Positions 1,005 to 35,247 of a stretch of DNA of 40,000 nt are shown piece after piece (within the stretch, counting starts at the first letter, position 1; every line of letters starts with the position of its first letter). The notes under the pieces are model-generated. The model did not search any database. It was not told the origin of the DNA and saw only the letters and a list, made by a program, of their open reading frames with translations. Source of the stretch: Lachnospiraceae bacterium (GTDB lineage Bacteria > Bacillota > Clostridia > Lachnospirales > Lachnospiraceae); the NCBI GenBank assembly GCA_017408735.1, contig JAFQUB010000041.1, forward strand, positions 89,373 through 129,372, read 5' to 3'. The position numbers and the translations under genes are program-made.

Positions 1005-1154
1005 ATGGTACATATAACAGATAAAAAGCAGATGGAAGCCGTAATTCGCTTGAATGAGCGAATGCAATGGATAGAAAGCTTTAATCTTAGCAAAGAAACA
1101 AAACAGTTTAACGATAATGTAACGATTGCAATGCTGTGGTGCATAACGCAATAG
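1005..1154 (+). CDS. Hypothetical small protein (49 aa, MVHITDKKQMEAVIRLNERMQW...)
   Basis: ATG lies 2 nt after the previous stop, with GGTGGGG upstream. It ends with TAG at 1152-1154, directly abutting the palindrome. Confidence 0.4.
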   Translation: MVHITDKKQMEAVIRLNERMQWIESFNLSKETKQFNDNVTIAMLWCITQ

Positions 1155-1169
1155 TTGCACCGGTGCAAC
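1154..1169. repeat. Palindrome copy P1, GTTGCACCGGTGCAAC (perfect)
   Basis: Exact 16-bp dyad in intergenic DNA, 18 nt upstream of ATG 1187. Confidence 0.95.
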
Positions 1170-1186
1170 GAGAAAGGAGAAACAGT

Positions 1187-1333
1187 ATGAAATATAGAAT
1201 TACGTGCACAGACGTGCTAAACACAGCACCAGTAGGCTGTGTAATGGAATTAGGAGAGAAAGGCACAGAATTTGTTGTCGTAGCCGGGAGAGTTATAAAA
1301 GCAACAAGCCGCCTGAAAAGGAGAAGAAAATGA
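1187..1333 (+). CDS. Hypothetical small protein (48 aa, MKYRITCTDVLNTAPVG...)
   Basis: Internal ATG of ORF 1136..1333, preceded by AAAGGAGA. The N-terminal extension in the track merely reads through the palindrome. Confidence 0.5.
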   Translation: MKYRITCTDVLNTAPVGCVMELGEKGTEFVVVAGRVIKATSRLKRRRK

Positions 1334-1722
1334 AACAGAAAGCATTAAAGGCATTACTTATACTTGGAGCAGCAATGGTAATAGTAACAAGTACAAAAGT
1401 AGCTGTAAAGGCAGAAAAACTCGGCCTGTTCAATTATAAAGAAATGGAAGCAACAGCCTACTGCGATGAAGGACTGTGCTATGACGAAACGATACCGACA
1501 GAAGGAATTACCTGTGCCGCGGAAAAAGAGTACATCGGCAAGACATTTGTGATTTACGACGAGAACTGGATGCTGATAGGAATTTATGAATGCCATGATA
1601 CCGGTGGAGATTACCGTATCAAGAATGGATCTGTTGTGGATATTTACATGGATAGCGAAGATGAATGTTGGAAATTTGGCAGACAAAAGGTTTACGTGCA
1701 AATTGTGGATGCAAAAGGTTAG
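1330..1722 (+). CDS. Secreted 3D-domain (RlpA/MltA-like double-psi barrel) protein
   Basis: Internal ATG 1330 overlaps the previous stop (ATGA). It has a signal-peptide-like N-terminus (MKQKALKALLILGAAMVIV). 3D-domain pattern: TAYC..GITCAA..IGKTF..HDTGG..IKNGSVVDIYM..FGRQKVYVQIV. Confidence 0.65.
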   Translation: MKQKALKALLILGAAMVIVTSTKVAVKAEKLGLFNYKEMEATAYCDEGLCYDETIPTEGITCAAEKEYIGKTFVIYDENWMLIGIYECHDTGGDYRIKNGSVVDIYMDSEDECWKFGRQKVYVQIVDAKG

Positions 1723-1730
1723 GAGGAAAG

Positions 1731-1946
1731 ATGAAGCAACCAAAGAAATTAACAAGAGAACAAAAGGAAATTGTAAGTGCACATGGATTAGTGGCGAACA
1801 ACTGGATGTTCGTGGAAGAAGTAACGGAAAGCCACATCAAAGTGATAAATAAGACATCAGGAAAGATAAAAATCTTAGACATATACAAAAAGCGGAATGC
1901 TTCCCCAATGCCGACCAAAGCAAAGAAGCATTCCAAATCTGTGTAA
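1731..1946 (+). CDS. Small conserved MGE protein (MKQPKKLTREQKEIVSAHGLVANNWMF...), resembles the DUF6906 type
   Basis: AGGAGGAAAG RBS precedes ATG 1731, which is internal to track ORF 1665..1946. The family name is from memory only. Confidence 0.5.
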   Translation: MKQPKKLTREQKEIVSAHGLVANNWMFVEEVTESHIKVINKTSGKIKILDIYKKRNASPMPTKAKKHSKSV

Positions 1947-1995
1947 TTAATAAATAATTACGGGACAATTATACACCAAAATAGGAAAAAGAGCA

Positions 1996-2244
1996 ATGAA
2001 AGAAGAATTGGAGATTGCGAAGAAGGAAGCAAGAAGCTTTTCCGGACTGAAACCGCCCAATAATGCAGTTCTGCTCGGAAAAGAACAAAAGACCAACGAC
2101 ACAATAAACTACTACAAGGATTCTGCGGGAAATTACTATTATGATACAGAGAACGGCAGAAAATTTGAACAGGACATGCAGGAGAGGATGAAGAAGCGAG
2201 AGGAAGAAAAGAGAAGAAATAGAAGACGCGGGAAAATTGCATAG
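1996..2244 (+). CDS. Hypothetical basic protein
   Basis: ORF track entry with an Arg/Lys/Glu-rich C-terminus. No motif recognised. Confidence 0.5.
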   Translation: MKEELEIAKKEARSFSGLKPPNNAVLLGKEQKTNDTINYYKDSAGNYYYDTENGRKFEQDMQERMKKREEEKRRNRRRGKIA

Positions 2245-2255
2245 AAAAAGAACAA

Positions 2256-2359
2256 AGCCGGCACGAAGCCGGCTAAAAAAATATTAAAAAATAAACTATA
2301 GATAAACTATACCATGAAATGAGGAAAAAGTCAATAAAATCAAGGGGATTCAGCCCCTT
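2256..2359. promoter_or_regulatory. Origin-like non-coding block upstream of Rep: GC hairpin, tandem 10-bp direct repeat, second hairpin
   Basis: AGCCGGC/GCCGGCT hairpin at 2256-2274 has no downstream T-run on the + strand. ATAAACTATA occurs twice with 11-bp periodicity (2291-2300, 2302-2311). AAGGGG-ATTCAG-CCCCTT hairpin at 2342-2359. Confidence 0.3.
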
Positions 2360-2401
2360 AAACAGCTTGGTAAAGTAATTATCTTTAGGACCGGAGGAAG
2401 C

Positions 2402-3157
2402 ATGCCATACATTTTAGAAACATGTATAGCAGGGAAAACGAAAGAGGTAAGTAAGTATTACAGTAGCCGCTGGAAAATAAAAGGGGAAAGAAGAAATAAA
2501 AAGAAGAAAAAAACAACCAACACACAGGAAAAGGTAAATCTAAGACTGGCGACAAAAAATCTCCGGAGGAAGATGAACCATAATTTTGAAGATGGCGATT
2601 ACCTAGTAACATTCGATTTCCGGAAAGAGGAGCGGCCGAAGCACAGCACGGAAATGACAAGATGTATGAGTAATTTCTTGAAGCGATTAAGAAATCAATA
2701 CAAAAAGCTTGGAGTGGAGCTGAAATATATTTATGTAAAAGAAATAGGACCAAGGGGTGCGGCTCACATACATATGATTATGAACAGGGCACCGGATGGG
2801 ATTGAGATTTTAAGAAAGTGCTGGACACATGGTGGAATCCACGTAGATCCGCTTAACACAGATGGCCAATACGAAAAGATTGCTGAATACTTTGTTAAGT
2901 ACGCAGATAAGACAATAAAGACAGAAGGCAAGCAGATTGGAAAGAAATATTATCCATCGCAAAATCTGAAAGAGCCAATCGTAAAAAAGAAAATAATATG
3001 GAAATCGAACACTTTTCGAACAACGGCAAAAGAAGAAAAGGGATATTACCTCGAAAAGGAAAGCGTAGTGGAAGGTGTAAACAAATGGGGCTACGAATAC
3101 TTTTCCTACACCCTGCATCAGAACAAAACAATTAGAAAGGAAAGAAAACTGGAATGA
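2402..3157 (+). CDS. HUH-superfamily rolling-circle replication initiator-like protein
   Basis: GGAGGAAG RBS. The three RCR Rep motifs occur in the expected order and spacing: YLVTFDF (motif I), AAHIHMIMN (HUH), AEYFVKYADK (catalytic Tyr YxxK). Confidence 0.6.
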   Translation: MPYILETCIAGKTKEVSKYYSSRWKIKGERRNKKKKKTTNTQEKVNLRLATKNLRRKMNHNFEDGDYLVTFDFRKEERPKHSTEMTRCMSNFLKRLRNQYKKLGVELKYIYVKEIGPRGAAHIHMIMNRAPDGIEILRKCWTHGGIHVDPLNTDGQYEKIAEYFVKYADKTIKTEGKQIGKKYYPSQNLKEPIVKKKIIWKSNTFRTTAKEEKGYYLEKESVVEGVNKWGYEYFSYTLHQNKTIRKERKLE

Positions 3158-3609
3158 GTTTCAAAGTAAACATTTACATAGCGACAACATGGACAAGCCC
3201 AAGGCAGAAAGGCGGGAAAGCCATGTGGCTAGTGGAATTTATAAAAAAAGACAACACACCGGCGACAAGGCAAGGAATTGTTGTAACAGAGGGAAAAGAA
3301 ATGGAAGCAATTCTGACAGCCTTAAAAGAAGCCGTAAGCATTTTAACAAAAAGCTGTACAATTAGAGGATTTATGCGGAGAAACGGGGTTTTGAATGCCT
3401 ATCAAAACAGCTGGATAAAGAAGTGGCAGAAAAATGACTTTAGAAGTTCGAAAGGAGTAGGGGTTGCGCACGAAGAAAAGTGGCGAGAGTTAATTGCTGA
3501 ACTGGACAAGCACCAGTACGAATTCATAGAAGGGTTAGGAGAATACGAGCTGTATATGAGGAATGAATTAGCGAAAAGCGTTGATTTTCCTCTAAAGGAA
3601 GGAGAATAA
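3154..3609 (+). CDS. RNase H-like fold protein, apparently catalytically degenerate
   Basis: ATGA overlap with Rep. By-eye alignment to RNase HI: VNIYIATTW vs VEIFTDGSC, EMEAILTALKEA vs RMELMAAIVALEAL, NSWIKKWQKNDFRSSKGVGVAHEEKWREL vs [27 protein letters not shown]. The E48 equivalent is kept. The D10, D70 and D134 equivalents are replaced. Confidence 0.4.
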   Translation: MSFKVNIYIATTWTSPRQKGGKAMWLVEFIKKDNTPATRQGIVVTEGKEMEAILTALKEAVSILTKSCTIRGFMRRNGVLNAYQNSWIKKWQKNDFRSSKGVGVAHEEKWRELIAELDKHQYEFIEGLGEYELYMRNELAKSVDFPLKEGE

Positions 3610-3649
3610 AATCTGTGAAGAATGCGGGAAACCATTCGGGCCAAGGTCA

Positions 3650-3970
3650 ATGAGACAACTAACTTGTTCGGAAGAATGTTCGAAATCAAGGCACAGGAGA
3701 AAATGTAAAGAAAGAAACAAAATAACGATTGAAAAGATATGCATAGAGTGCGGAGAAAAGTTTTTGACAAACAGAAGAAAAACACTTACGTGCTCTCAGC
3801 GATGTGTAAGCAAGCGTTCGGCAGCACGCAGAAAATACAATGCATCTTGCATTAGTGAAGGAAACAAAAGAAAAACAACAGAAATTGGAACAATAGAGAA
3901 TATGGCACGGGAAGTAGGACTTACTTATGGCCAATACGTAGCAATGCAGTACGCAAAGGAAGGAAGATAG
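3650..3970 (+). CDS. Duplicated zinc-ribbon protein (ICxECG..F..LTCSxxC x2); the frame is open from 3596
   Basis: ORF track. The second repeat is KICIECGEKFLTNRRKTLTCSQRC. The first repeat, KICEECGKPFGPRSMRQLTCSEEC, begins upstream of the first ATG. Confidence 0.55.
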   Translation: MRQLTCSEECSKSRHRRKCKERNKITIEKICIECGEKFLTNRRKTLTCSQRCVSKRSAARRKYNASCISEGNKRKTTEIGTIENMAREVGLTYGQYVAMQYAKEGR

Positions 3971-3972
3971 AT

Positions 3973-4467
3973 ATGTACGAAAAATTTGGAGAATTTAACA
4001 GTGTGGAAGAATTAAACGAAGCGGCAGCGGGATTTCTAGCAGAGGGAGATTTTAAATCTATAAGAGAACTGGCAGAAGAAAACGGACTGGACGGAGAGGA
4101 TGCGGAGGATTATATTGCTGGAGATATTCCGGAACTTGCGACTGTAGTTAGCGCAGCTATGGGAAAGTTAGACCTGGAGGAAAAAGAAATTGATAAAAAG
4201 AGTGCCATCGAAAAGATGCCCCTCTTGGTAATTCACAACATGACAAAAGGGATGTGTACAGACGAAAACTTGGCAGCGGCTGTAATGGGAAAAGGAAAGA
4301 GAATAGAAAAAATCTTCGAATTAATGCGAAAAGAGGCAAGAAAACACGCGACAGGTGAAACGGGGATGTGTTGCGGAACAGACAGAGAGTTGTGCAATGT
4401 AATCCGGGCATATTATACCGAAGGCGAAAAAAAGGCAGTGGAAGTAATAGAAGCACTATACAAGTAG
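3973..4467 (+). CDS. PcfK-like protein (family that includes the AcrIIA9-type anti-CRISPR annotation)
   Basis: Acidic N-terminal helices (ELNEAAAGFLAEGD..ENGLDGEDAEDYI) and a C-terminal CCGTDRELCNVIRAYY region, immediately upstream of a PcfJ-like gene. Assignment is from recalled family pattern and the pcfK-pcfJ gene pairing. Confidence 0.45.
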   Translation: MYEKFGEFNSVEELNEAAAGFLAEGDFKSIRELAEENGLDGEDAEDYIAGDIPELATVVSAAMGKLDLEEKEIDKKSAIEKMPLLVIHNMTKGMCTDENLAAAVMGKGKRIEKIFELMRKEARKHATGETGMCCGTDRELCNVIRAYYTEGEKKAVEVIEALYK

Positions 4468-4476
4468 GAGGCAGAC

Positions 4477-6447
4477 ATGGATAAAAGAGAATTAATAAAA
4501 CTCCCATGCACAGCTCCAGACTGGATGATAGAAAAAGCACAGGAGTACACAAAAGATACGTTCCTTCTGAGGAGGAAATTTGGACGTATAAGCACATATG
4601 AAATTTATCAAAAAAGGGAATTGCTGGCAGGTGATACAGCACCGACATTTATTATATTCCGAACCAAGAATGACTGGATAAATTATACTCCAAAAAAGGA
4701 ATGCTGGACGAAAGCAAAGTTCGAGAACGCGGTAATAGAAGTGAGCGAAAATGGAAGGGTACACTGGAGCGTATATTACGCAGTGGATCAGTATAAAATT
4801 CTGAAGAATCTTAAAAGATGGCAGAACAAAATCGGTGAAAAGCGGTTAAAAGAGAGAAGACGTAAAGAAAGAGAAAAAATAGATGAAATAATGCGTAAAG
4901 TACCAGAACTTCCAGAAGACTTTGATAATTTCATAGAGAATGACCTGATGAAACAGGCAAATTATATAATCTACAACCGGAAAGATAATAAGGCATACTG
5001 CACAAGATGTGAGAGCGACTACACCCTTGACGAACTGGAGGTAAAAAACAATACAAAGACAACACACATGGGCGATTACCAACATTGCCCGTATTGCCGT
5101 AACTGGATGAAACAAATATCATACGGCATGAGCAGAGTAGGAAAAGGTTTTATATATGGGACAGAGATAATGCAACCCTATGAAAAGGGTGTGATAGTAA
5201 GAGAATTTGTAGTACACAGGGATTTTGAGAAGGACAATACTGGGCAAAAAAGCAGTCGCATGAAGACAGAATACTATGAAATACACAGGTACATAGTAAC
5301 GCCGGAGGCGGCAAGGCAGTACGAATATGAATACACAGATGGCAATGGAAAAAGGGTATGGGCGGATAGAACGAATGCTAATTTTAAAATAATTGGCAGA
5401 GATACCGGGAAATTCTACACACAAGATGTAAAGGAAATAATTGAGAAATCAGGATTACACTACGAAGGTCTAGGCGAATTATTGCAGAACCAGATAGATA
5501 AAAATACCTACGCAACAGGAATGGAACGCCCTCTTTGTAGATTATTAGAAAAGCCGTACATAGAGCAGTTGGTAAAATCCGGTCTGAACCAACTAGCAAG
5601 CACTGAGTTAGAGAAGGACTACCACAGATATGCACTAAATGCCAAAGAAACAAAACTAACGAAGCTGCTAGGAATTAACAAAGAGGAACTAAGGATACTA
5701 AGAGAGCAGAAAAATCAAGAAATAACCCTCGAAATCATGCAGGAATACCATAGCAACAATAAGGTGGCAACACAAGAAATGATAGAAGCAGTAGTTACAG
5801 CTTGGAGTAAGAGAGAAATTCATATAGAGGACATAGAAAAACTGATAAAGAAAGAGGTAAGAGAACAGAAGGTTCTTGCCTATGTAAAGGAGCAAGGAAT
5901 CCGAATAACAGACTTTATCGACCACTTAGATTTAATGGAAAAGCTGGAAATTCCCAAAAAGAAAACAAATATCTATCCCAAGGATTTTGTAAAGTTCCAT
6001 CAGGACGAAATCGAAGAAGAACTGTTAAGGGATGGAAGCAAAATATCGAACGAAACAAATACGGAATTTCAGAAAACCTATGCGAGATGGAAAAAGATAA
6101 TAAAAAAGCAAAAGGTAACGACAACGGATGGAAGATATCAGTGTATTCTCCCCGAAAGTGCAGTGGATATCAAGATAGAAGGAAGATGCCAGCATCATTG
6201 TGTTGGCGGTTACACAGACAGAGCCGCAAGAGGAGAAACCTTAATATTCTACATCAGGGAACGCAAAGAGCAGCGGTTATACACAGCAGAGTACAAGAAA
6301 GGCGAATTAATACAGGTGCGGGCAAGATATAACGCTGACCCGACACCGGAAGCGAAAAAACTTGCGCAACAATTTGCCAAGGAGCTGGCAGTGGCAGAAG
6401 AAAAAGAAGCAAAGAAGGATAAGAAACAGATGGCAGAAGCAGTATAG
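4477..6447 (+). CDS. PcfJ-like domain protein (656 aa)
   Basis: C-terminal EGRCQHHCVGGYTDRAARGETLIFYIRER block is typical of PcfJ-like proteins. There is an internal CxxC...CPYC zinc-ribbon. Confidence 0.5.
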   Translation: MDKRELIKLPCTAPDWMIEKAQEYTKDTFLLRRKFGRISTYEIYQKRELLAGDTAPTFIIFRTKNDWINYTPKKECWTKAKFENAVIEVSENGRVHWSVYYAVDQYKILKNLKRWQNKIGEKRLKERRRKEREKIDEIMRKVPELPEDFDNFIENDLMKQANYIIYNRKDNKAYCTRCESDYTLDELEVKNNTKTTHMGDYQHCPYCRNWMKQISYGMSRVGKGFIYGTEIMQPYEKGVIVREFVVHRDFEKDNTGQKSSRMKTEYYEIHRYIVTPEAARQYEYEYTDGNGKRVWADRTNANFKIIGRDTGKFYTQDVKEIIEKSGLHYEGLGELLQNQIDKNTYATGMERPLCRLLEKPYIEQLVKSGLNQLASTELEKDYHRYALNAKETKLTKLLGINKEELRILREQKNQEITLEIMQEYHSNNKVATQEMIEAVVTAWSKREIHIEDIEKLIKKEVREQKVLAYVKEQGIRITDFIDHLDLMEKLEIPKKKTNIYPKDFVKFHQDEIEEELLRDGSKISNETNTEFQKTYARWKKIIKKQKVTTTDGRYQCILPESAVDIKIEGRCQHHCVGGYTDRAARGETLIFYIRERKEQRLYTAEYKKGELIQVRARYNADPTPEAKKLAQQFAKELAVAEEKEAKKDKKQMAEAV

Positions 6448-6455
6448 GAGGAACT

Positions 6456-8054
6456 ATGGAACAAATAATAACAGCACAAACAGTAACCGAAGAAACGAGT
6501 GTACATGGGACTTATGAACATTTTAGAGAAACCCTGCAAACAGAGTTACGAAAGAACATGGAGGGATTTATAAAAATTGGTTATCTGCTAAAGGTAGCAA
6601 GAGATACAGATATTCTGCATAAATCCGGATATAAAAGCGTAACGGAGTTTGCGGCAGCGGAATACGGACTAACCAAAGACGTGGTAAGCCGATACATAGC
6701 CATAAACGACAGGTATTCCGAAAATGGCTATGGAGAGAGCTTGAAAGAAGAATACAGCCGGTTTGGAGTAGCAAAACTGGCAGAGATGCTGACGCTGTCG
6801 GACGAGGTAATAGAGAGCCTGAGCCCACAGCTCACGCGAACGGAAATACAGGAGATTAAGAAAGAAATTAAGCAAGAAGAGAAGATAACCGACCTCGAAG
6901 TGATGATGGAATCCCTGCAACCGACAGAACGACCGTTATTCGACACATTGGCAGAAGATGCCTTATACCAGTATCTAAAAGAAAATAAAGAGGAGTTCAA
7001 GAAAATTTTCGAGGTATTGGAGAAAGGCGGAAAGTATGAGGAAATAACAGAAAAGTTTCTGGATATTATCGCACCAAGCGGAGTTGCAGCCAAGACAACA
7101 AGAATACCGGGAAAAGGCAAGATAATGATATCCGTAAGAGGAATAGATGAAAATGTGGACTTCCTGAACGTGCGGAACAATGAAAAAGAGAGCCATGATT
7201 GGAAAATGATAGCCATATTTTTAGATGAAATGTTAAGTTTTACGGAACATAGTACAAATGCAGAAGAAACGTATAAGGAATTGTACGGAGAGTCATTTAA
7301 TATTCAGGAAGAAACCCCGGAACTTTTAGATGAAACAAAGGAAAAACCGGAAGTTGCACCGGTGCAACAGGCAGAAAACAAGAATATTGTTACAACCGAA
7401 ACGGAAAACAAAGATATTGCGACAAAAGCAGCGGAAGAAAGCAACGCAGAACCGGCAAAAGAATCTCGAGAACCGGAAGTGGAAAAAGTAACTGGAGAGG
7501 TAGTAGAAGAAACACGGAATTTAGAGGAAATAAGGGAAAAATTAGCACTTGCCTTTATAAAACGTTACGAAACAAGATTAGAGGATTCAGAGAATATGCG
7601 TGACGAAGTGCTTGCTATACTCGACAAAGTGCATAAGAGTGAATGGATTTTTGAACATAACGGGGAAGACATCTTCGTAATAGAGGTAGCGGGAGGACTA
7701 AAACTGCGACAGAAGGGAGAAGAAATAGCGGCGTTCGAATGGGGAGAATTCTATAAACTAATGCACAAGGTGTATTGGAGAAATGCGGAAAATTACATAG
7801 AACCGATTATGGAAGAAAATACTGAAAGTTGCACCGGCGCAACCGAAGAACAGGTGCAAGGTCAGACTGCTATAGAAAATTATCCGGAATACCTACCGGA
7901 AAATGCAAAAAGCAATATGGAAGTATGGCAGGAAATAAAAGCCCAGGTAAAAACAAGAATGGAATCAATAGCAAGAGCAATAGAAGAAGATAACTACACC
8001 CTAATAAAATGGGATGCCAAAAAACTCGCAGAACTAATGGAGGCAATCCGATGA
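6456..8054 (+). CDS. Acidic 532-aa protein with N-terminal ParB/KorB-type HTH-like region; carries palindromes P2 and P3
   Basis: KSVTEFAAAEYGLTKDVVSRYIAINDRY ... FGVAKLAEMLTLSDEVIESL resembles ParB-type HTH plus following helices. No GxxRxxA CTPase box was seen. It has a long Glu-rich linker. Confidence 0.4.
   Translation: MEQIITAQTVTEETSVHGTYEHFRETLQTELRKNMEGFIKIGYLLKVARDTDILHKSGYKSVTEFAAAEYGLTKDVVSRYIAINDRYSENGYGESLKEEYSRFGVAKLAEMLTLSDEVIESLSPQLTRTEIQEIKKEIKQEEKITDLEVMMESLQPTERPLFDTLAEDALYQYLKENKEEFKKIFEVLEKGGKYEEITEKFLDIIAPSGVAAKTTRIPGKGKIMISVRGIDENVDFLNVRNNEKESHDWKMIAIFLDEMLSFTEHSTNAEETYKELYGESFNIQEETPELLDETKEKPEVAPVQQAENKNIVTTETENKDIATKAAEESNAEPAKESREPEVEKVTGEVVEETRNLEEIREKLALAFIKRYETRLEDSENMRDEVLAILDKVHKSEWIFEHNGEDIFVIEVAGGLKLRQKGEEIAAFEWGEFYKLMHKVYWRNAENYIEPIMEENTESCTGATEEQVQGQTAIENYPEYLPENAKSNMEVWQEIKAQVKTRMESIARAIEEDNYTLIKWDAKKLAELMEAIR
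7353..7368. repeat. Palindrome copy P2, GTTGCACCGGTGCAAC (perfect)
   Basis: Exact copy inside the acidic linker of ORF 6456..8054, translated as VAPVQQ. Confidence 0.95.
7828..7843. repeat. Palindrome copy P3, GTTGCACCGGCGCAAC (one mismatch)
   Basis: 15/16 match, in the same ORF but a different codon phase (ESCTGAT). A GGTGCAAG half-site follows at 7852. Confidence 0.85.
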
Positions 8055-8386
8055 AGAAAAGCACAAGAGCAAGAGAATTCTCCGCAAAAACAAGAGAAGC
8101 AATCAAAGAACGCGACAAAATGAGCTGCATATTCTGTAAAATGGGCTACCATATGGAAAGCACCACACAAGCCGGCTATATAATAAAATCTATAATGCAT
8201 TACATACCAAGGTCAAAAGGTGGCCTTGGTATCGAGCAGAATGGAGCCATCGGTTGCCAATACCATCATGAACTCTTAGATAATGGCAATAAAGGGCTAA
8301 GAGGAGAAATGCTAGAACTGTTTAAAGGGTACTTAAAGGAGCATTACCAAAACTGGAATGAAGAAGAATTAATTTATAAAAAATAA
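8051..8386 (+). CDS. HNH endonuclease
   Basis: ATGA overlap with the previous gene. HNH pattern: CIFC...HYIPRSKGGLGIEQNGAIGCQYHHELLDNG. Confidence 0.7.
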   Translation: MKKSTRAREFSAKTREAIKERDKMSCIFCKMGYHMESTTQAGYIIKSIMHYIPRSKGGLGIEQNGAIGCQYHHELLDNGNKGLRGEMLELFKGYLKEHYQNWNEEELIYKK

Positions 8387-8406
8387 AATTTTTAGGAGGA
8401 AGAACG

Positions 8407-8850
8407 ATGAACAAAACAATTTTAATGGGACGATTAACACGCGATCCGGAAGTGAGATATAGTCAGACGGCGGAGCCGGTAGCAATTTCGCGATACACAC
8501 TTGCGGTAGACAGAAAAATTAAGAGAGAAGGAGAACAGACCGCAGACTTTATAAGTTGTATAGCCTTTGGCCGTAATGCAGAATTTGCAGAAAAGTACTT
8601 CCGGAAGGGAATGAAAGTGCTAATTACAGGAAGGATTCAGACTGGAAGCTATACAAACAAGGATGGGCAGAAAGTTTACACAACAGATGTGGTAATTGAA
8701 GAGCAGGAATTTGCAGAAAGCAAAGGAAGTGGCGAAAGCAACCGGGAAGAAAGAGATAGAGCAGCGATGCAGGCAGCGGGATATGGCGATGCCGGAGACG
8801 GGTTTATGAATATACCAGAAGGCATAGACGAAGAGTTACCGTTCAACTAA
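8407..8850 (+). CDS. ssb: Single-stranded DNA-binding protein
   Basis: Canonical OB-fold N-terminus MNKTILMGRLTRDPEVRY...ADFISCIAFGRNAEFAEKYFRKG..V.ITGRIQTGSY, and an acidic C-terminal tip DEELPF. Confidence 0.95.
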   Translation: MNKTILMGRLTRDPEVRYSQTAEPVAISRYTLAVDRKIKREGEQTADFISCIAFGRNAEFAEKYFRKGMKVLITGRIQTGSYTNKDGQKVYTTDVVIEEQEFAESKGSGESNREERDRAAMQAAGYGDAGDGFMNIPEGIDEELPFN

Positions 8851-8869
8851 GAATTTGGAGGAAAAAGTA

Positions 8870-9440: not shown

Positions 9441-9444
9441 AGTT

Positions 9445-10052: not shown

Positions 10053-10070
10053 AGACTGTGAGGTGCAAGA

Positions 10071-10487: not shown

Positions 10488-10491
10488 TAAC

Positions 10492-11598: not shown

Positions 11599-11605
11599 TG
11601 CATAC

Positions 11606-11760: not shown

Positions 11761-12177
11761 GTGACATTTGAAGAAGCAAGTCAAATCTATTACATAAACT
11801 TAGAAATAAAAGCATTAAGATTAGAATTAGCAAAATTAAAAGAAGAACGAAGATACTACAAACCAAACGTAATAACAGACATGCCAAGAGGCGGCAGTGG
11901 ATATGTAAACCCACAGGACGAATACCTTGTAAAAGAACAGGAACTGGAAGATATGCTAAGCTACTCTTTAAGAAAATTACAGTATGAAAGAAGGAAGATA
12001 GAGGACTTCTTAAATACTGTAGATGAAGCAGAAACGAGACTTATTATTCGGCTCAGATGCGTAAACAACATGAAATGGGAAGATATTGGAGCCGAGATTG
12101 GAGCAGACAGAAGAACAGTAAGCAGAAAATTCTATAAATTTTTTGAGAAAAGCAAAAGTTGCCCACAATGCCCATGA
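11761..12177 (+). CDS. Putative late-gene transcription regulator (sigma-70 region-4-like; DUF1492/ArpU/RinA-type position)
   Basis: GTG start follows AGGAGGAAAACAAG. The C-terminal LIIRLRCVNNMKWEDIGAEIGADRRTVSRKFYKFF resembles a region-4 HTH. The gene sits immediately upstream of terS. Confidence 0.55.
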   Translation: MTFEEASQIYYINLEIKALRLELAKLKEERRYYKPNVITDMPRGGSGYVNPQDEYLVKEQELEDMLSYSLRKLQYERRKIEDFLNTVDEAETRLIIRLRCVNNMKWEDIGAEIGADRRTVSRKFYKFFEKSKSCPQCP

Positions 12178-17646: not shown

Positions 17647-17846
17647 TTATTAAGGATGAGCAAATTGAAGTATTGAAGCCATGTATTGAAAATATCGCGG
17701 AACTTGTCGAAAAAGGTGATGTTCAAGAAGTACTAAATGCCATCGATGATGTCATTGTTGATAATATTCTTGGTAACAATGATGAACCTGATGAAGAGGG
17801 CATTAAACTTCAAAAGATTTATGATGAAATAGATAAACAGAATTGA
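17643..17846 (+). CDS. Small very acidic protein (67 aa), immunity-like partner of the MuF C-terminal domain
   Basis: ATGA translational coupling to the MuF gene. It is Asp/Glu-rich and followed directly by a terminator. Confidence 0.55.
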   Translation: MIIKDEQIEVLKPCIENIAELVEKGDVQEVLNAIDDVIVDNILGNNDEPDEEGIKLQKIYDEIDKQN

Positions 17847-17879
17847 TACCACCAGTCATTAGGCTAGGTGGTATTTTTA
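17846..17879 (+). terminator. Intrinsic terminator
   Basis: ATACCACC / GGTGGTAT 8-bp stem, 13-nt loop, T-run at 17874-17878. Confidence 0.7.
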
Positions 17880-17895
17880 TACCCAAAATTCAAAA

Positions 17896-17911
17896 GTTGC
17901 ACCAGTGCAAC
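17896..17911. repeat. Palindrome copy P4, GTTGCACCAGTGCAAC (one mismatch)
   Basis: 15/16 match. Intergenic, 17 nt after the terminator and about 205 nt upstream of the scaffold gene. Confidence 0.85.
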
Positions 17912-18118
17912 AAACCCGATAATAGCAGAATCACTGAAAATCTATGAACCGAACAGTGTAGAGGTGACACCAAGTAGGCTCCTTCGGTGGTTCTGTTTTT
18001 ATATTGTCCAAAGCCTCAAGACGCTTAAAAGGTCGGTAATATGCCTAGTGCAGGGCACCTAAACAGCACACTGTCGTGGAGACACCACATTTAAAAATGG
18101 TACAGAGAAAGGAAAGAT

Positions 18119-18778
18119 ATGGAGTTTTTAAAAGAAGTATTAGGAGAGGAACTTTACAAACAGGTAGAAACAGCAGTAAATGCCCACAATGGCAATCCGG
18201 AAAATAAAGACAAGCAGGTAAAACTTGCAAATCTTTCTACTGGACAGTATGTGGACAAAGGAAAGTATGACACCGTTGTTGCAGAAAAAGGTAATCTGGA
18301 AGGACAGATAAGTACACTGAACACCACAATATCTAACATGAAAAAAGATAACAAAGACAATGAAGAATTGCAAACCACAATTACTAATTTGCAGACAGAG
18401 CTGACAAAGCAGCAGAAAGCAAACGAGGAAATTTCTAAGACTTATGCCCTAAAAGAACAGCTCTCCAAGGCCGGTGTGATAGATGCAGATTATCTTATTT
18501 ACAAGCATGGCGGTATTGATAAGTTTACTTTTGACAAAGAAAACAAGCCGGTAGGTGTAGAAGACGCCATTAAGTCATACAAAGAAGATGCAACTATGGC
18601 GCATCTGTTCAAACAGGAATCTGGAAAACCACCATACAACCCTAAAGGCGGTAACGGAGGTGGAGCCGTTAATCCGTTTGCAAAGGAAACCTACAATCTT
18701 ACTAAGCAGGGAGAATTATTAAAGAATAATCCGGAAGAAGCTCGCAGACTTGCGGCAGCGGCTGGATTAGTCATTTAA
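18119..18778 (+). CDS. Scaffolding protein (GP20-like)
   Basis: MEFLKEVLGEELYKQVETAV...KLANLSTGQYVDKGKYD plus a coiled-coil centre. Positioned just before the capsid gene. Confidence 0.75.
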   Translation: MEFLKEVLGEELYKQVETAVNAHNGNPENKDKQVKLANLSTGQYVDKGKYDTVVAEKGNLEGQISTLNTTISNMKKDNKDNEELQTTITNLQTELTKQQKANEEISKTYALKEQLSKAGVIDADYLIYKHGGIDKFTFDKENKPVGVEDAIKSYKEDATMAHLFKQESGKPPYNPKGGNGGGAVNPFAKETYNLTKQGELLKNNPEEARRLAAAAGLVI

Positions 18779-26465: not shown

Positions 26466-26468
26466 GAA

Positions 26469-27170: not shown

Positions 27171-27180
27171 GTGACAGCAT

Positions 27181-28381: not shown

Positions 28382-28391
28382 GAGGTGCATT

Positions 28392-29900: not shown

Positions 29901-30432
29901 TCTGATTGATTTTCTTCCAGATATATTTAAAACCTTTGAAGAATTCAAAGAAATCATGCGCGTGGAGCAAAAGCAGATTTCAGAACTGTGGGAAATAATT
30001 TATGGAATTATAAATGAGGCTCTGGTAGATGAAGCAACAGGTGAAGGTCTGAAACGATGGGAAAACATACTGAACATAACAGTATTCGATACAGATGACG
30101 TAAAAGTGCGTAGGCTTCGTATACAGGCGAAGATAATTGAGGATGTTCCATATACAGAACGTGTGTTAAACAATATTCTTACAGGTCTTTGTGGAGAAAA
30201 TGGTTTTATGTCCGCTTTAAATAACGAGGAATATACGCTGACGATTAAGGTGGCATTAACAAGTAAGAACTTAAAGGATGAAGTTGTTGCTATGTGCGAA
30301 AGGATTGTGCCGGCGAATATCGTCCTTGACATCGACTTGATGTACAACACACACGGAATACTTAGAGGGTATACGCATAAGCAACTTAGACAATTTACGC
30401 ACGGACAGTTAAGAAATGAGGTGTTGCCATGA
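29890..30432 (+). CDS. DUF2313 / XkdU-like tail protein
   Basis: GGAGGTG RBS precedes ATG 29890. N-terminal LIDFLPDIFKTFEEFKEIM pattern. Confidence 0.7.
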   Translation: MKRNLIDFLPDIFKTFEEFKEIMRVEQKQISELWEIIYGIINEALVDEATGEGLKRWENILNITVFDTDDVKVRRLRIQAKIIEDVPYTERVLNNILTGLCGENGFMSALNNEEYTLTIKVALTSKNLKDEVVAMCERIVPANIVLDIDLMYNTHGILRGYTHKQLRQFTHGQLRNEVLP

Positions 30433-31256: not shown

Positions 31257-31512
31257 GTCCTATAGTTACAACACTCACCCTTATATCCGTCGCGGCAGAT
31301 GTTGATTTAGGTAAGTACATCAATTTTCCGTTGGCGGGTATATATACTGTACCACCATCATGCACTTTATCTGCTGTTCCACAGTTAATTAAACTAATTG
31401 AAATAATGTTGCTATAGCTTCCGATTGTTGCAATTTCTACTGAAACACCCTCTGTTATAGCGCCATTATAAAAATATGTCCTACAAATTCCTGTTAGTTT
31501 ATTTGAGTTTAG
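31249..31512 (-). other. Silent tail-fibre C-terminal cassette B (LNSN + 83 aa), no start of its own at the site
   Basis: Part of minus ORF 31249..31539. It reads ..SSLNSNKLTGICRTYFYNGAITEGV... and lies tail-to-tail with cassette A (8-nt overlap). Confidence 0.75.
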
Positions 31513-31518
31513 TGAACT
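31497..31518 (-). repeat. Crossover site S2 (reverse complement AGTTCACTAAACTCAAATAAAC)
   Basis: Core at 31501-31511, inverted relative to S1. It shares a 14-bp identity, CACTAAACTCAAAT, with S1. Confidence 0.85.
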
Positions 31519-31556
31519 TCCGGAGTATCCTAAAACCAAAAACGGAGGATACGGAA

Positions 31557-32537
31557 ATGGAAGAAAGATTTAGAAGCGAACTATTAATGGGGTTGGCAGA
31601 ATTTAGCAAAGAAGTAACAGAAAAAGTGGACAGGTTGCTTATTGGATTATTGCAGCGGTACCAGATAACGCAAAAAACAACAGAATTGGCAGTATTCCAA
31701 GAAGATACAAATATTCTGTTAATGCAAAGGTATATCGCAAGCTTGCGACTAGAAGGAAAATCGGAAGCTACGTTGGAACAGTATAAGAGAGCGATAGAAA
31801 AGCTTTCAGAAAGCATTTATAAGGCTTTCAAAGACATTACAACAAATGATATCAGATGCCACCTGGCGCGATATCAGACAATTAGAAAAGTGTGCAAAGC
31901 CACATTGGATAATGAGCGCAGATACTTGTCTGCGTTCTTCCGTTGGCTTACGGTAGAAGAGTACATAGAAAAGAACCCCATGTTAAGAATAAAAAAGGTA
32001 AAATCGGAAAAGAAGATAAAGAAAGCATTTTCTGATTTGGAATTAGAGAAATTGCGTGGGGCTTGCAGAACAAAAAGAGAAAAAGCACTGATAGAGTTTT
32101 TCCTATCAACTGGGTGCAGAGTATCAGAAGTAGTTGGGTTAGATATAGACCATGTAGATTTTAGTAAGAAAGAATGTGTAGTGTTCGGAAAAGGTGGAAA
32201 GGAAAGGACGGTATATTTAACTGAAAGGTGCCTGTATTACTTGGAAGAATACTTAAAAAGCAGAGAGGAGCAGGGGACTTTATTTGCCGGGAAGAAAAAC
32301 CAAAGATGGAGCAAAGCGGCAATAGAAAAGTGTTTAAGGAGTATGGGAGAACGTGCAGGAGTGCAGAACGTGCATCCGCATAGATTTAGACGAACATTCG
32401 CAACAAATGCACTGAATAAGGGAATGCCATTGCAGTATGTGCAACGCATCCTAGGGCATACGTCTATGGATACTACACTTATTTATTGCGTTGTAGATAC
32501 AGAAAACATGAAATTAGAGCATAAGAAAGTAGCATAA
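31557..32537 (+). CDS. Tyrosine site-specific recombinase (XerC/D / Rci-like), putative shufflon invertase
   Basis: GGAGGA RBS precedes ATG 31557, internal to track ORF 31476..32537. It has an N-terminal SAM-like domain. Catalytic pattern: STGCRVSEV (R), HPHRFRRTFAT (HxxR), LGHTSMDTTLIY (H...Y). Its stop codon lies inside site S3. Confidence 0.85.
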   Translation: MEERFRSELLMGLAEFSKEVTEKVDRLLIGLLQRYQITQKTTELAVFQEDTNILLMQRYIASLRLEGKSEATLEQYKRAIEKLSESIYKAFKDITTNDIRCHLARYQTIRKVCKATLDNERRYLSAFFRWLTVEEYIEKNPMLRIKKVKSEKKIKKAFSDLELEKLRGACRTKREKALIEFFLSTGCRVSEVVGLDIDHVDFSKKECVVFGKGGKERTVYLTERCLYYLEEYLKSREEQGTLFAGKKNQRWSKAAIEKCLRSMGERAGVQNVHPHRFRRTFATNALNKGMPLQYVQRILGHTSMDTTLIYCVVDTENMKLEHKKVA

Positions 32538-32558
32538 GTACTATAAACTCAAATTCTT
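32537..32558 (+). repeat. Crossover site S3 (AGTACTATAAACTCAAATTCTT)
   Basis: Core at 32544-32554, same orientation as S1. The upstream AGTAC is also shared with S1. Confidence 0.8.
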
Positions 32559-32884
32559 CTGGAATTAAAAAACAACTTAACGCTGGCGAATCCGCATACA
32601 TATACATTAACGATGGTAACGGAACTGGTGGAATTGTGCTAATTTCTGTATGGCGAGAAACTGCAAATCTTAGAGGAATATATATGGCGCAACCAGGGAA
32701 TGGTAATAACACAAACCAATATCAAGAGTCAACCGTTATTGCATTAAAAGAGCTATCCAGTATATCCGTAGAAGCTGCGGTGGATTCAAAATATTCGTCC
32801 GTGAAAATAACAAATAATCACACTTCCGCAGTATGTGTAAGAGCAGTTTCATTATGTGGAAGTCAACCAGAATGGATTTCATAA
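32546..32884 (+). other. Silent tail-fibre C-terminal cassette C (NSN + 109 aa)
   Basis: The frame is open from the site through track ORF 32636..32884 (..INSNSSGIKKQLNAGESAYIYINDGNGTGG...). No RBS or start at the site. Confidence 0.7.
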
Positions 32885-32892
32885 TTCTTATA

Positions 32893-33189
32893 TTATAGCA
32901 ACTTTAATTTTGTTGAACTAATATTAATACCAGTACCTAACTCACTGGATGCTGTTATTGTTACGCCAGTTGAATTAATTGTTACAGTTAACATACTTGA
33001 TAGATTTCCACAAATCCAGCTAAAATAAGAACCATCAGCGTAACCCGTTAGGTCGAGGTATGCAAGACCATTTCGAGGCCAGATACCGTTTTGTGAAAAA
33101 TGCAGTAAATACCTCCCTTTATCAAAAGAAATATCTTTTGAAGAATCTGAATTTAAGATACTATGATTCTTATATAAATTTGAGTTTAG
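32893..33189 (-). other. Silent tail-fibre C-terminal cassette D (LNSN + 94 aa)
   Basis: Reverse strand reads LNSNLYKNHSILNSDSSKDISFDKGRYLLHFSQNGIWPRNG...STKLKLL*. An in-frame stop lies just upstream of the site. It is tail-to-tail with cassette C and absent from the ORF track because it has no Met. Confidence 0.7.
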
Positions 33190-33195
33190 CTTACA
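33174..33195 (-). repeat. Crossover site S4 (reverse complement TGTAAGCTAAACTCAAATTTAT)
   Basis: Core at 33178-33188, inverted relative to S1. It shares a 16-bp identity, CTAAACTCAAATTTAT, with S1. Confidence 0.85.
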
Positions 33196-33219
33196 TTAAT
33201 TGAATAATTTGTTTAAAGC

Positions 33220-33261
33220 GCCTTACAAGAGCCGGATAATCCGACTTTTATAAGGCTTTTT
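33220..33261 (+). terminator. Hairpin plus T-run downstream of the invertible region
   Basis: GCCTTA...TAAGGC outer stem with an inner CGGA-TAA-TCCG, followed by TTTTT. Confidence 0.45.
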
Positions 33262-33296
33262 AAGCTACAAAAAATAAAAAGAAAGAAGGAAAACAT

Positions 33297-33644
33297 ATGG
33301 AGAAAGTAGTGTTAAAAGATGAAACAGAAATCGTAATCTGTGACGGAGCAGCGGAGAACTGCATAACAGTGCCTTTTACAGATGAATCTGAGGTTGCAGG
33401 AATTACTGAAAATTTCACGCAGCAAAATCTTGAGGAATTTAAGATTTACAATGCCAGCGGAGTTTTGTGTACTACAATTACCAATAAAAAGGTAAAAAGT
33501 TACACAACCAATTTGGAAGAAAAAACAGTAACGTTCAATCTAGAAGATGTTTCTAAATTAGAAAATCGCGTAACAGAATTGGAAGCAACACAGGAAATGC
33601 AGGATGAAGCGATTATGGAACTGGCAGAAATGGCGGTAGAATAG
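33297..33644 (+). CDS. Hypothetical protein with C-terminal coiled coil (occupies the XkdW-like slot)
   Basis: GAAGGAAAAC RBS. Position between the fibre and XkdX-like genes. No motif recognised. Confidence 0.55.
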   Translation: MEKVVLKDETEIVICDGAAENCITVPFTDESEVAGITENFTQQNLEEFKIYNASGVLCTTITNKKVKSYTTNLEEKTVTFNLEDVSKLENRVTELEATQEMQDEAIMELAEMAVE

Positions 33645-33654
33645 GAGGTAGAGC

Positions 33655-33762
33655 ATGGTTAATTTTTATGTGTATCGCATTAAAAAAGGTAAAATGACAC
33701 TAGAAGACGTTCCGCCAAAATGGAGAGCGGAAGTAGCAGAAAGACTGGAGGAAGAAGACTAA
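33655..33762 (+). CDS. XkdX-family small phage protein (35 aa)
   Basis: TAGGAGGTAGAGC RBS. MVNFYVYRIKKGKMTLEDVPPKWRAEVAERL matches the XkdX pattern (fw...i..g..tl..VP...r..V...L). Confidence 0.65.
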   Translation: MVNFYVYRIKKGKMTLEDVPPKWRAEVAERLEEED

Positions 33763-33845
33763 TGTCATTTGCAATTGGAGTTATTTTAGGAGTATTCTTT
33801 GGAACATTTTACTTAGCCTTGGTAAACAAGGACAAGGAACAGTAG
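33762..33845 (+). CDS. 27-aa hydrophobic peptide (MSFAIGVILGVFFGTFYLALVNKDKEQ)
   Basis: TAATG overlap with the XkdX-like gene. It has a single TM-like segment and is followed by a terminator. Confidence 0.35.
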   Translation: MSFAIGVILGVFFGTFYLALVNKDKEQ

Positions 33846-33867
33846 ACCGCGGAAATGCGGTTTTTTT
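33846..33867 (+). terminator. Intrinsic terminator
   Basis: ACCGC-GGAAAT-GCGGT followed by TTTTTTT. Confidence 0.6.
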
Positions 33868-33886
33868 ATGGAAAGAGGTAAAGAGA

Positions 33887-34321
33887 ATGGAGAAAATCAG
33901 CACAATTAAAGCAATTATTTTAACAATCATCGGGACATTAGGGAGCATTGTAACAAAATGGTTCGGAGGATGGACAGAAGATTTGACAACGTTAATTATT
34001 TTTATGGGAATCGATTACTTAATGGGACTTGCTATTGCAGCCTTTTGGAAAAAGAGCGGAAAGTCCAAAACTGGAGCATTAAATAGCATTTCCGCATGGC
34101 AGGGGCTTATCCGGAAAGGATGCTCATTGTTGGTTGTATTAGTAGGATATCGTTTGGATTTAGCAATTGGCACAGATTACATAAAGACAGCGGTAATAAT
34201 TGCATTTATAACAAACGAAGCAATTTCTATTGTGGAAAACATTGGTATTATGGGCATTCCGTTGCCAAAGACAATTACAAAAGCAATAGATGTGTTAAAG
34301 AGTAAATCAGAGGGCGAGTAA
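33887..34321 (+). CDS. Holin (phage_holin_4_1 / TcdE-like family)
   Basis: Multiple TM helices. Family-typical W.G..ED..TL..FM.IDY..G...A.........S....G..KK........NE.ISI.EN....G..IP. Confidence 0.88.
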   Translation: MEKISTIKAIILTIIGTLGSIVTKWFGGWTEDLTTLIIFMGIDYLMGLAIAAFWKKSGKSKTGALNSISAWQGLIRKGCSLLVVLVGYRLDLAIGTDYIKTAVIIAFITNEAISIVENIGIMGIPLPKTITKAIDVLKSKSEGE

Positions 34322-34356
34322 TCGTCCTCTTTTCTATTAGAAAGGGTGTGAAAAGT

Positions 34357-35247
34357 ATGAAAACGAGCCAAAATGGAATTGATTTAATTAAGAAATTTGA
34401 GGGTTGCCGATTAAAAGCATATAAGTGTGCGGCGGATGTGTGGACGATTGGGTACGGGCACACGAATGGGGTAAAATCTACAAATGTGATTACAGAAGTA
34501 CAGGCAGAAGAATACCTAAAGGAAGATTTAGAGCGATTCGAGAAAAATGTCGAGAAATATAATTACCGATATAATTGGAACCAGAATGAATTTGATGCCC
34601 TGGTTAGCTTTGCATTTAATCTCGGATCCATCGACAAATTGACAGCAGATGGAACACGGAGCAGAGAAGTGATAGCAGAAAAAATCCTTTGTTATAATAA
34701 AGCCGGCGGAAAAGTTCTTACTGGGTTAACAGAAAGAAGAAAAGCGGAACAGAAGTTATTTTTAACCAAAGTTGCACCGGTGCAACAGTATTCTAAAAAT
34801 AAAACCACAGACGGATCCGGTTTGATTCGAGCAGTGCAGCAGTGGTTAAATAAAGAATATGGAAAATATATTAAAGTTTGCGAAGCCTGCGGCAAAAAGT
34901 TACTGGAAGTAGACGGAGAATTCGGTGCAAAGACCAAGGCTGCTCTTACAATTGCCCTACAGGTATGGTTAAACGACTTCGAAGATATTAGTTTAAAAGT
35001 AGATGGAGAGTTCGGAGCTAAGACCAAGGCAGCATGTAAAATTGTTAGCACAACAATTAATGCTTACACTAGAGGAGCCCAGATTGTACAGGCAATTCTT
35101 TATTGCAATAAGTACAATCCGCAGATGTTCGACGAAGCATTTAACAAGGACTGTGAAACAGCATTAAAAGCATACCAAACCGGCCGAGGACTTAAACCGG
35201 ATGGAGTGGCAGGGCCGCTTTTCTTCGAATCTGCTTTGACAAACTAA
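34357..35247 (+). CDS. Endolysin: GH24 lysozyme domain plus C-terminal peptidoglycan-binding repeats (alternative GTG start at 34348)
   Basis: GIDLIKKFEGCRLKAYKCAADVWTIGYGHT (catalytic E, T4/lambda-lysozyme type). Repeated VDGEFGAKTKAA and LKPDGVAGP PG_binding_1-like motifs. Confidence 0.9.
   Translation: MKTSQNGIDLIKKFEGCRLKAYKCAADVWTIGYGHTNGVKSTNVITEVQAEEYLKEDLERFEKNVEKYNYRYNWNQNEFDALVSFAFNLGSIDKLTADGTRSREVIAEKILCYNKAGGKVLTGLTERRKAEQKLFLTKVAPVQQYSKNKTTDGSGLIRAVQQWLNKEYGKYIKVCEACGKKLLEVDGEFGAKTKAALTIALQVWLNDFEDISLKVDGEFGAKTKAACKIVSTTINAYTRGAQIVQAILYCNKYNPQMFDEAFNKDCETALKAYQTGRGLKPDGVAGPLFFESALTN
34771..34786. repeat. Palindrome copy P5, GTTGCACCGGTGCAAC (perfect)
   Basis: Exact copy in the inter-domain linker of the endolysin, translated as VAPVQQ, in the same phase as P2. 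Confidence 0.95.

Follow-up and report, generated by a model that had tools for sequence, protein, structure and literature searches.

The 16-bp palindrome GTTGCACCGGTGCAAC recurs five times in the DNA analyzed here, a 40,000-nt stretch of contig JAFQUB010000041.1 (hereafter the window) from a Lachnospiraceae metagenome-assembled genome, which carries a myovirus-type prophage. The palindrome is under selection at the level of DNA and is tightly linked to one family of phage proteins, represented in the window by open reading frame (ORF) ORF532 (6456..8054, + strand). It is embedded in the very genes that encode this family, and it exists in two classes that co-vary with the protein. The explanation that we favor, with moderate confidence, is that the palindrome is the cognate double-stranded DNA site of the ORF532-family protein, and that its dispersed copies are loading points that mark the phage chromosome.

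The five copies comprise three perfect ones and two with a single mismatch, at the positions reported by a first-pass annotation of this DNA, and the base immediately 5' of the palindrome is A at all five sites, as had also been recorded. Being palindromes, the sites are given without strand. Site 1 (1154–1169, perfect) belongs to the early rightward operon and occupies the intergenic space that separates two small ORFs, 1005–1154 and 1187–1333, 17 nt 5' of the ATG of the latter and directly ahead of the ribosome-binding site. Site 2 (7353–7368, perfect), which is the 'self' site found across the family, lies within ORF532 at the start of its first disordered linker and is read in frame 0 as VAPVQQ (residues 300–305). 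Site 3 (GTTGCACCGGCGCAAC, 7828–7843; one mismatch, T11 to C) is 475 bp from site 2, in the second disordered linker of the same gene; it is read in frame +1 as SCTGAT (residues 458–463) and is kept in the ~30 closest homologues. Site 4 (GTTGCACCAGTGCAAC, 17896–17911; one mismatch, central CCGG to CCAG) is intergenic, directly 3' of a stem-loop and T-run in a 270-nt gap (17846 to 18119) that has head-morphogenesis genes on one side and scaffold/capsid genes on the other. Site 5 (34771–34786, perfect) is again read in frame 0 as VAPVQQ and lies in the inter-domain linker of the endolysin (gene at 34348..35247, + strand; site at residues 142–147), between the lysozyme domain (15–134) and the PG-binding domains (204–291). 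The minus strand of site 4, together with the A-run that flanks the site 5' on the plus strand, gives a weak intrinsic-terminator score (6-bp stem + TTTTGAATTT); an A-rich 5' flank is frequent at many sites and, in coding copies, is due to Glu and Lys codons.

The earlier division into two intergenic copies (sites 1 and 4) and three in-gene copies (sites 2, 3 and 5) is correct, and so is the observation that both VAPVQQ copies occupy low-constraint linkers: site 2 falls in a segment with a predicted local distance difference test score (pLDDT) of <50, and site 5 in the endolysin inter-domain linker. Scanning the window at up to three mismatches returned nothing beyond the five copies. Chance does not account for the repeat, as had been argued from its expected frequency, given that 100 dinucleotide-preserving shuffles contained on average 0.00 copies at ≤2 mismatches and 0.07 at ≤3 mismatches, and none reached five. 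The reported lack of any copy after 35.3 kb was also confirmed, which says little on its own because this part of the window is only 4.7 kb long.

Among loci fetched by the motif, 58 carried an ORF532 homologue, and the palindrome lay inside that gene in 45 of them, always in frame 0, near residue 265–300 and read as VAPVQ(P/Q). Because this sample was chosen by the motif, the test was repeated from the protein side. A protein database search identified >1,600 homologues (clusters at 90% identity), all unnamed. A VAPVQ-type island was present in 114 of the best 120 of these homologues and stands out, in their alignment, as the one conserved element of the hypervariable, low-complexity linker C-terminal to the conserved N-domain (~270 residues). 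The primary position of one homologue (P0013) reads SCTGAT, which is the same DNA read one frame over. We also examined 80 viral loci that were fetched by similarity to the ORF532 protein alone (35–51% identity), counting sites at ≤1 mismatch. At least one site was found in 75 of the 80 loci and at least two in 49, for a total of 158 sites in 1.4 Mb compared to 0.016 expected, so that the repeat first noticed in one prophage is conserved in its relatives. Grouping the proteins did not alter this picture, as site and protein were associated in 33 of the 36 clusters formed at 90% protein identity and in eight of the nine formed at 50%.

The palindrome is thus tied to the ORF532 protein family, and these comparisons point to ORF532 as by far the best candidate for its reader. 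The first-pass annotation had proposed a dimeric helix-turn-helix (HTH) protein as reader and named three phage candidates. A reader of this type is likely, and linkage at the protein level puts forward the product of ORF 6456..8054 (that is, ORF532) as the best candidate; the other two, ORF 11761–12177 (sigma/ArpU-like) and terS, showed no link to the palindrome. In the literature, the motif was found in no paper, and the protein–site pair looks like a previously undescribed one that is present in well over a thousand related gut phages.

Codon choice within the island separates selection on DNA from selection on peptide. Of the 32 VAPVQ peptides in the protein-fetched homologues, 27 were coded exactly GTT GCA CCG GTG CAA, for which the codon usage of these genes predicts 0.3%, and the Gln codon was CAA in all 32 cases though CAA, a minority codon, makes up 16% of usage. 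Exact codons, other reading frames and intergenic copies together indicate that the DNA, not the peptide, is selected, as had been suggested from the window alone, and on the same three grounds we rejected selection on the VAPVQ peptide itself. Changes were distributed unevenly over the half-site: none at positions 2 and 3, two at position 4 and one at position 7, compared to 71 at position 1, 26 at position 5, 20 at the central position 8 and ten at position 6. Most were one-sided. This pattern identifies the 14-mer TTGCACCGGTGCAA as the real core, with a weak preference for A/G ahead of it and C/T behind, and it fits a protein-bound dyad. From centre to centre, 11 bp (about one helical turn) separate the invariant triplets TTG and CAA, a spacing that would place both on one face of the helix, in the usual geometry of a dimer that reads two major grooves.

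A second class of site was found in a sister subfamily, which carries TTGCGCCGGCGCAA at the equivalent place in its gene, read as IAPAQ. Compared to the palindrome of the window (class A), both half-sites of class B are altered at the same position, that is, by one symmetric base pair. One of the two changes is synonymous in the coding frame (GCA to GCG) and the other replaces Val with Ala, so palindromy is kept at the peptide's cost. Scanning for TTGCGCCGGCGCAA revealed 17 loci with more distant ORF532 relatives and with the site in the gene at the matching place. When class B loci were fetched protein-first, the B site was present in 77 of 80 (the three misses being loci that end before the linker) and the A site in none. 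The putative recognition helix also differs between the classes, and no helix variant was seen with both site types; Lys at helix position 2 occurs almost only with the A-type site, and non-Lys helices occur with both types. No one-residue recognition code could be derived from the comparison of helices and sites. Co-variation of protein subfamily and site type is as predicted for a cognate protein–site pair and, because the classes are also phylogenetic groups, it constitutes strong circumstantial evidence and not proof.

One protein-fetched locus that lacks the A motif (L247) carries TTGCGCCAGCGCAA three times, once in the linker of its ORF532 homologue. Together with L240 and L252 (IMG/VR 3300045988_067816, 3300045988_006755 and 3300030039_000039 for L240, L247 and L252, respectively), it represents a small subfamily that is 38–44% identical to ORF532, has TADIV or AADIV in place of TKDVV in the helix, and carries a B-like site, either TTGCGCCAGCGCAA (CCAG centre) or a degenerate form of that sequence. 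This subfamily may be intermediate between the two classes.

To the extent that database matches can be distinguished from chance, the palindrome belongs to phages. Scans for the exact 16-mer returned stretches of viral contigs (at least 120) and of genomes (at least 119). Approximately 139 chance matches are expected in the 596 Gb of genomes, and the matches in Planctomycetota, Mycolicibacterium, Methylococcales and similar taxa are consistent with this number. Most of the genomic matches listed were from Lachnospiraceae (Acetatifactor, Roseburia, Alitiscatomonas and others), in which a contig often had two to four copies, and these loci were rich in ORFs with phage-protein matches; the loci from outside the family had none. 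The palindrome is therefore phage-associated and confined to phages of one bacterial family, which supports the association with phage that was first suspected from the window. Two contigs assigned elsewhere, L126 (CAVITM010000012.1, 'Moraxellaceae') and L183 (CAVFMG010000079.1, 'Odoribacter splanchnicus'), each carry a full ORF532 gene, the in-gene site and phage-like neighbors, and are probably mis-binned Lachnospiraceae phage contigs.

Among the matches listed, 241 distinct exact copies had unrelated flanks save for a weak preference for A at –1 and T at +17. The repeat unit is therefore the 16–18-mer itself and not a piece of a longer mobile unit, and a mobile repeat of the REP/MITE kind, which would share extended flanks, was rejected. 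Sites occur about once per 7.7 kb, with a median gap of 5 kb and few gaps of <3 kb. Outside the ORF532 gene there were 102 sites (163 in total), of which 46 were intergenic and the others were spread over the three reading frames (24, 22 and 10); many of the intergenic ones lie 11–21 nt 5' of a start codon. Endolysin linkers of various architectures hold the palindrome in other phages, in frame 0 (VAPVQ) or frame 1 (SCTGAT), and it is also recurrent just upstream of serine- and tyrosine-integrase genes. From the use of all frames and of intergenic DNA, it follows that these phages put the DNA word wherever coding constraints permit.

ORF532 consists of an N-domain, two disordered linkers and a variable C-terminal part. 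AlphaFold2 predicted the N-terminal domain (residues ~18–283) with a pLDDT of 87 and a predicted template modeling score (pTM) of 0.80. The model shows a long helix, followed by a helix at residues 62–70, a turn and a helix at residues 74–87 (EFAAAEYGLTKDVVSRYIAIN), and this helix pair bears the invariant or near-invariant residues of the family (A66, S78, R79 and I83/N84). Based on predicted structure and sequence pattern, the pair is, to our eye, HTH-like, with a motif that we take to be comparable to classical HTH signatures. Both of the palindromes in ORF532 are coded within segments of pLDDT <50 (residues 285–351 and 447–468).

Known families offered little guidance. ORF532 and 108 family members had no match in Pfam or NCBIfam, and no PADLOC label either; the sole match of ORF532 in PHROGs was phrog_15077, for which function is not annotated. 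Neither a sequence search nor the family profile had a match among all PDB sequences at E ≤ 10. Foldseek searches of the PDB with full-length and N-domain models found none with E ≤ 0.001, and their top 50 included no ParB-family chain; a structure search of BFVD returned family members plus weak inovirus and DUF3102 matches (E = 0.24–1.2 for DUF3102). The C-terminal parts are shuffled among homologues, with the N-domain and the DNA site constant: an alpha/beta domain stands between the linkers in ORF532 (residues ~350–445) and at the N-terminus in homologue P0033, and some other homologues have ASCH/DUF3850 or zinc-ribbon C-termini. Amid this variable region, one motif, EEQ(I/V)PGQxxI(E/N)DYPE(Y/V)LPE (EEQxPGQxxIxDYPExLPE in simplified form; 7861–7920 in the window, residues ~469–488), stands directly after site 3. 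It is common to class A, class B and the homologue in Clostridium scindens phage phiCs5676-1, and looks like a docking peptide for a partner.

Physical binding by ORF532, the geometry of the dimer and the function downstream of binding are what we infer from these observations. As an early gene product of the replication module, ORF532 would recognize the core as a dimer through the HTH of its N-domain, with one subunit per half-site. The primary site would be the one within the DNA that codes the disordered linker just after the N-domain and, since the site is thereby written into the gene of its binder, protein and site would be inherited as one unit. Another two to five secondary sites would stand round the phage chromosome at intervals of ~3–10 kb in permissive sequence, that is, in short intergenic gaps or in linker-coding DNA in any frame. 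These sites would act as loading or nucleation points for a replication-linked job such as organization, pairing, positioning or long-range control. Because they ignore promoter positions and are tolerated or favored in linkers, that job would be one in which number and spread matter. The mode of action would be akin to that of parS/ParB, the KorB operators of RK2 and the SopB repeats of N15, and not to that of a classical promoter operator.

Comparison to ParB requires care, as the first-pass annotation had likened the half-site to that of parS. The established parS consensus is TGTTNCACGTGAAACA, with the half-site pattern GTTNCAC. The likeness proved to be a resemblance only: the half-sites in GTTGCAC-CG-GTGCAAC do not abut, the two extra central bases change the register, and the class B site TTGCGCCGGCGCAA departs from parS further than class A does. 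At the level of organization the systems are more alike. ParB/parS and Noc/NBS likewise pair an HTH dimer with dispersed copies of a palindrome (16 bp for parS and 14 bp for NBS), and the spo0J (parB) gene of Bacillus subtilis itself contains one parS; here, dispersed copies of one palindrome include two of five in the ORF532 gene, an arrangement found family-wide. ORF532, however, matches no ParB-family Pfam model and has no CTPase motif, and its family profile and predicted fold match no solved structure of ParB, Noc, KorB or SopB. The prophage ORFs scanned with Pfam and PHROGs, which were all but a few small ones, included neither ParA nor ParB, and neither did the precomputed Pfam list of the contig. 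From the negative domain and fold searches, ORF532 is not a detectable member of the ParB family.

Two mobile elements provide further parallels. The sites of prophage N15 are said to be dispersed and partly in expressed regions, in reports by Ravin and Lane from 1999 and by Grigoriev and Lobocka from 2001. N15 SopB acts on four natural centromere repeats, IR1–IR4, which share the core GTGCGACCNNGGTCGCAC and differ in their flanks (PMC7205306). As here, a phage protein is matched to a few near-identical 16–18-bp palindromes that occur as single sites in a temperate phage of ~40 kb. The two differ in that SopB belongs to the ParB family and has the SopA ATPase as its partner on a prophage that is a linear plasmid, whereas the ORF532 prophage is integrated, has neither a ParB domain nor ParA and carries its primary site in the binder's own gene. 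Plasmid RK2 has 12 dispersed OB operators for KorB, some of them distant from promoters, which are loading sites for long-range action (PMC11790492). RK2 is thus also a mobile element with many dispersed copies of one short palindrome, but KorB is a CTP-dependent sliding clamp of the ParB family with the partners KorA, TrbA and IncC, none of which is detectable here.

The genes around ORF532 are all on the + strand and form a conserved module. Rep, a rolling-circle-type protein (REP_ORF2-G2P; PF23343, phrog_3584; 2402–3157), is followed by an RNase H-like protein (3154–3609), a small HNH (3650–3970), ORF164 (3973–4467), a PcfJ-like protein (4477–6447) and ORF532, with an HNH endonuclease (8009–8386) immediately 3' and SSB (8407–8850) after it. 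Related loci keep the order Rep, RNase H-like, ORF164, PcfJ-like and ORF532, then often HNH and SSB, and this downstream pair places ORF532 inside a replication/recombination module. Two small HNH genes flank the trio of ORF164, PcfJ-like and ORF532 genes, with the second directly after ORF532 in 40 of 96 related loci. The same module is present in the isolated C. scindens phage phiCs5676-1, in which its genes, those for Rep and RNase H apart, are labeled "hypothetical"; the literature contained nothing functional on PcfJ-like proteins, DUF3102 or this phage.

Two distant relatives deserve mention. Phage phiCs5676-1 (OR574845.1) contains two GTGCGACNNCGCAC near-palindromes (L322:31533–31546 and 34068–34081), in its ORF164 and ORF532 homologues, with a half-site equal to that of the N15 SopB repeat. 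As there are two copies, found post hoc, they may be due to chance and are too weak to count as the cognate site of this phage. Clostridium butyricum plasmid pCBU3 (NZ_AP019719.1, record ~3689–3727; L321:2790–2828), a 6-kb inovirus-like plasmid with Zot and Rep genes, carries a perfect parS, TGTTTCACGTGAAACA (18 bp with flanks). This parS and a second perfect palindrome, GTAACGACGTCGTTAC, are ~185 bp upstream of the gene for a 231-residue protein with an N-terminus homologous to the HTH region of ORF532. Because an ORF532-like domain was absent from all 120 other parS-bearing viral loci examined, a general link between parS and this domain was rejected, and pCBU3 stays an isolated lead.

Elsewhere, the prophage encodes a terminase, an SPP1-type portal, a Mu-F-like head protein, scaffold and capsid, followed by tail sheath, tape measure, baseplate, holin and endolysin genes. 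The endolysin gene is the last identified phage gene, and the ORF after it (35337–35867) is Mn-catalase-like. A tyrosine recombinase (Phage_integrase with a SAM-like N-domain; 31476–32537, + strand) lies between the tail-fiber genes and the lysis cassette, on the strand of the structural genes, and is perhaps an unusually placed integrase of the prophage, or else an invertase. A divergent CI-like/Cro-like switch is located in the 3.5 kb of contig upstream of the window. The INPHARED search found no near-identical phage.

Several observations weigh against ORF532 as a reader of dispersed chromosome marks. For an integrated prophage that lacks a ParA-type partner, a role in segregation would meet no obvious need. 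The sampled loci come from related phages, and counts such as 75 of 80 loci overstate their independence. ORF164 and the PcfJ-like protein accompany ORF532 almost without exception; co-occurrence and phylogenetic co-variation alone therefore cannot pick out ORF532 from this trio. The HTH assignment is not backed by any match in Pfam, NCBIfam, PDB sequences or the Foldseek search of the PDB. The distant homologue in phiCs5676-1 comes with neither an A nor a B site and with no clear recurrent palindrome. Finally, class B phages often have only the in-gene site within ±10 kb, which fits a local function such as an origin equally well.

This last point leads to the main rival, under which ORF532 would be a replication protein that binds an origin, like lambda O, SPP1 G38P or the Rep proteins of lactococcal phages, with the in-gene palindrome acting as the origin or as the site where the initiator loads and the other copies as auxiliary or secondary origins. 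We regard it as unlikely, though deserving of serious attention. Its attraction is the position of the gene in a replication module, among Rep, RNase H-like, PcfJ-like, HNH and SSB genes, together with a primary site in linker-coding DNA between a DNA-binding-like N-domain and a variable C-terminal part, and the many class B phages in which the in-gene site stands alone within that distance. Lambda O with ori-lambda and SPP1 gene 38 with oriL have the same linker-coding layout inside a replication module, and SPP1 has a second, distant site, oriR. Those origins, however, are repeat arrays beside an AT-rich stretch, whereas here there is one 16-bp palindrome, or two 475 bp apart, with no iteron array. 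Nor is there an AT-rich unwinding stretch by the in-gene site, where AT content is ~55% and equal to background; around 60 in-gene sites, the mean in 20-bp bins over ±400 bp was 0.43–0.62, similar to other sites. Furthermore, a separate rolling-circle-type Rep is already present in the module, extra copies in the head region and (perfect) in the endolysin linker are unexpected of origins, and ORF532 has no Pfam match and hence belongs to no known replication-protein family.

Less probable still is that ORF532 is a global repressor or activator of the phage and that the palindromes are operators of the adjacent genes. An HTH-like element in the predicted structure and palindromic sites would suit a transcription factor, as would the 46 of 102 non-self sites that are intergenic, many of them 11–21 nt before a start codon. 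This closeness to start codons arises because phage intergenic gaps are very short. Coding DNA contains more than half of the non-self sites, and the site that is best conserved stands 900 nt into a gene. Promoter prediction gave no sigma-70-like match beside site 1 or site 4, promoter-like matches were not enriched overall, and the palindrome was absent from the CI/Cro switch and from the start of the late (terS) operon, on which basis we rejected the more specific readings as CI/Cro operators or a late promoter.

We consider it highly improbable that the palindrome is read by a host factor (a ParB/Noc-like or other nucleoid protein of Lachnospiraceae) which the phage exploits or evades. The half-site GTTGCAC does fit the parS pattern GTTNCAC, and on pCBU3 a perfect parS precedes, by 185 bp, the gene for a relative of the ORF532 HTH region. 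Against this, parS has its half-sites 2 bp closer together and the site type changes along with the phage protein subfamily. The Lachnospiraceae matches are in phage-like DNA, those in other phyla are accounted for by chance, and the parS-bearing viral loci examined lack the domain.

Explanations that involve no dedicated binding protein (an RNA or single-stranded DNA hairpin, a restriction-modification target, the VAPVQ peptide or a small mobile repeat) merit hardly any credence: the 6-bp stem with a 4-nt loop is worth –6.7 kcal/mol and the minus strand of site 4 scores as terminator-like, but common variants abolish the fold (GGTACAAC, –2.3 kcal/mol; ATTG..., –3.1 kcal/mol), one-sided changes dominate and Rfam contained no matching family, and although the palindrome centers on an AgeI-type ACCGGT, the defense or nuclease target that this had suggested is contradicted by over-representation, not avoidance, of ACCGGT (9 versus 3.9 expected) and CCGG (121 versus 44), with no methyltransferase among the window ORFs scanned.

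A protein with dispersed cognate palindromes is a known kind of system; what is new here is a proposed binder without known relatives, a primary site in the disordered linker of that protein's own gene and the existence of two co-varying classes. A bolder version of the favored explanation, which we put forward only tentatively, is that ORF532 and the palindrome form a new viral chromosome-marking system unrelated to ParB by descent, in which a DNA-binding protein of new fold has its 'centromere' in the linker-coding part of its own gene and switchable classes prevent cross-talk between phages that co-infect or reside in one host. In gut Lachnospiraceae, a handful of dispersed copies would then serve to organize, pair, position or license phage genomes during replication.

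For a large family of "hypothetical" proteins, these results suggest a concrete and testable function, namely sequence-specific binding to a 14–16-bp site. The family resides in prophages of the Lachnospiraceae, a major family of the human and animal gut, and the motif together with ORF532 provides a compact marker for this phage group in metagenomes. Two classes that are one symmetric base pair apart represent a natural experiment on protein–DNA recognition by a fold that has no solved relative. More generally, a cis-acting DNA element can be hidden in the coding sequence of a disordered linker, and conserved linker islands such as VAPVQ and IAPAQ can be DNA signals.

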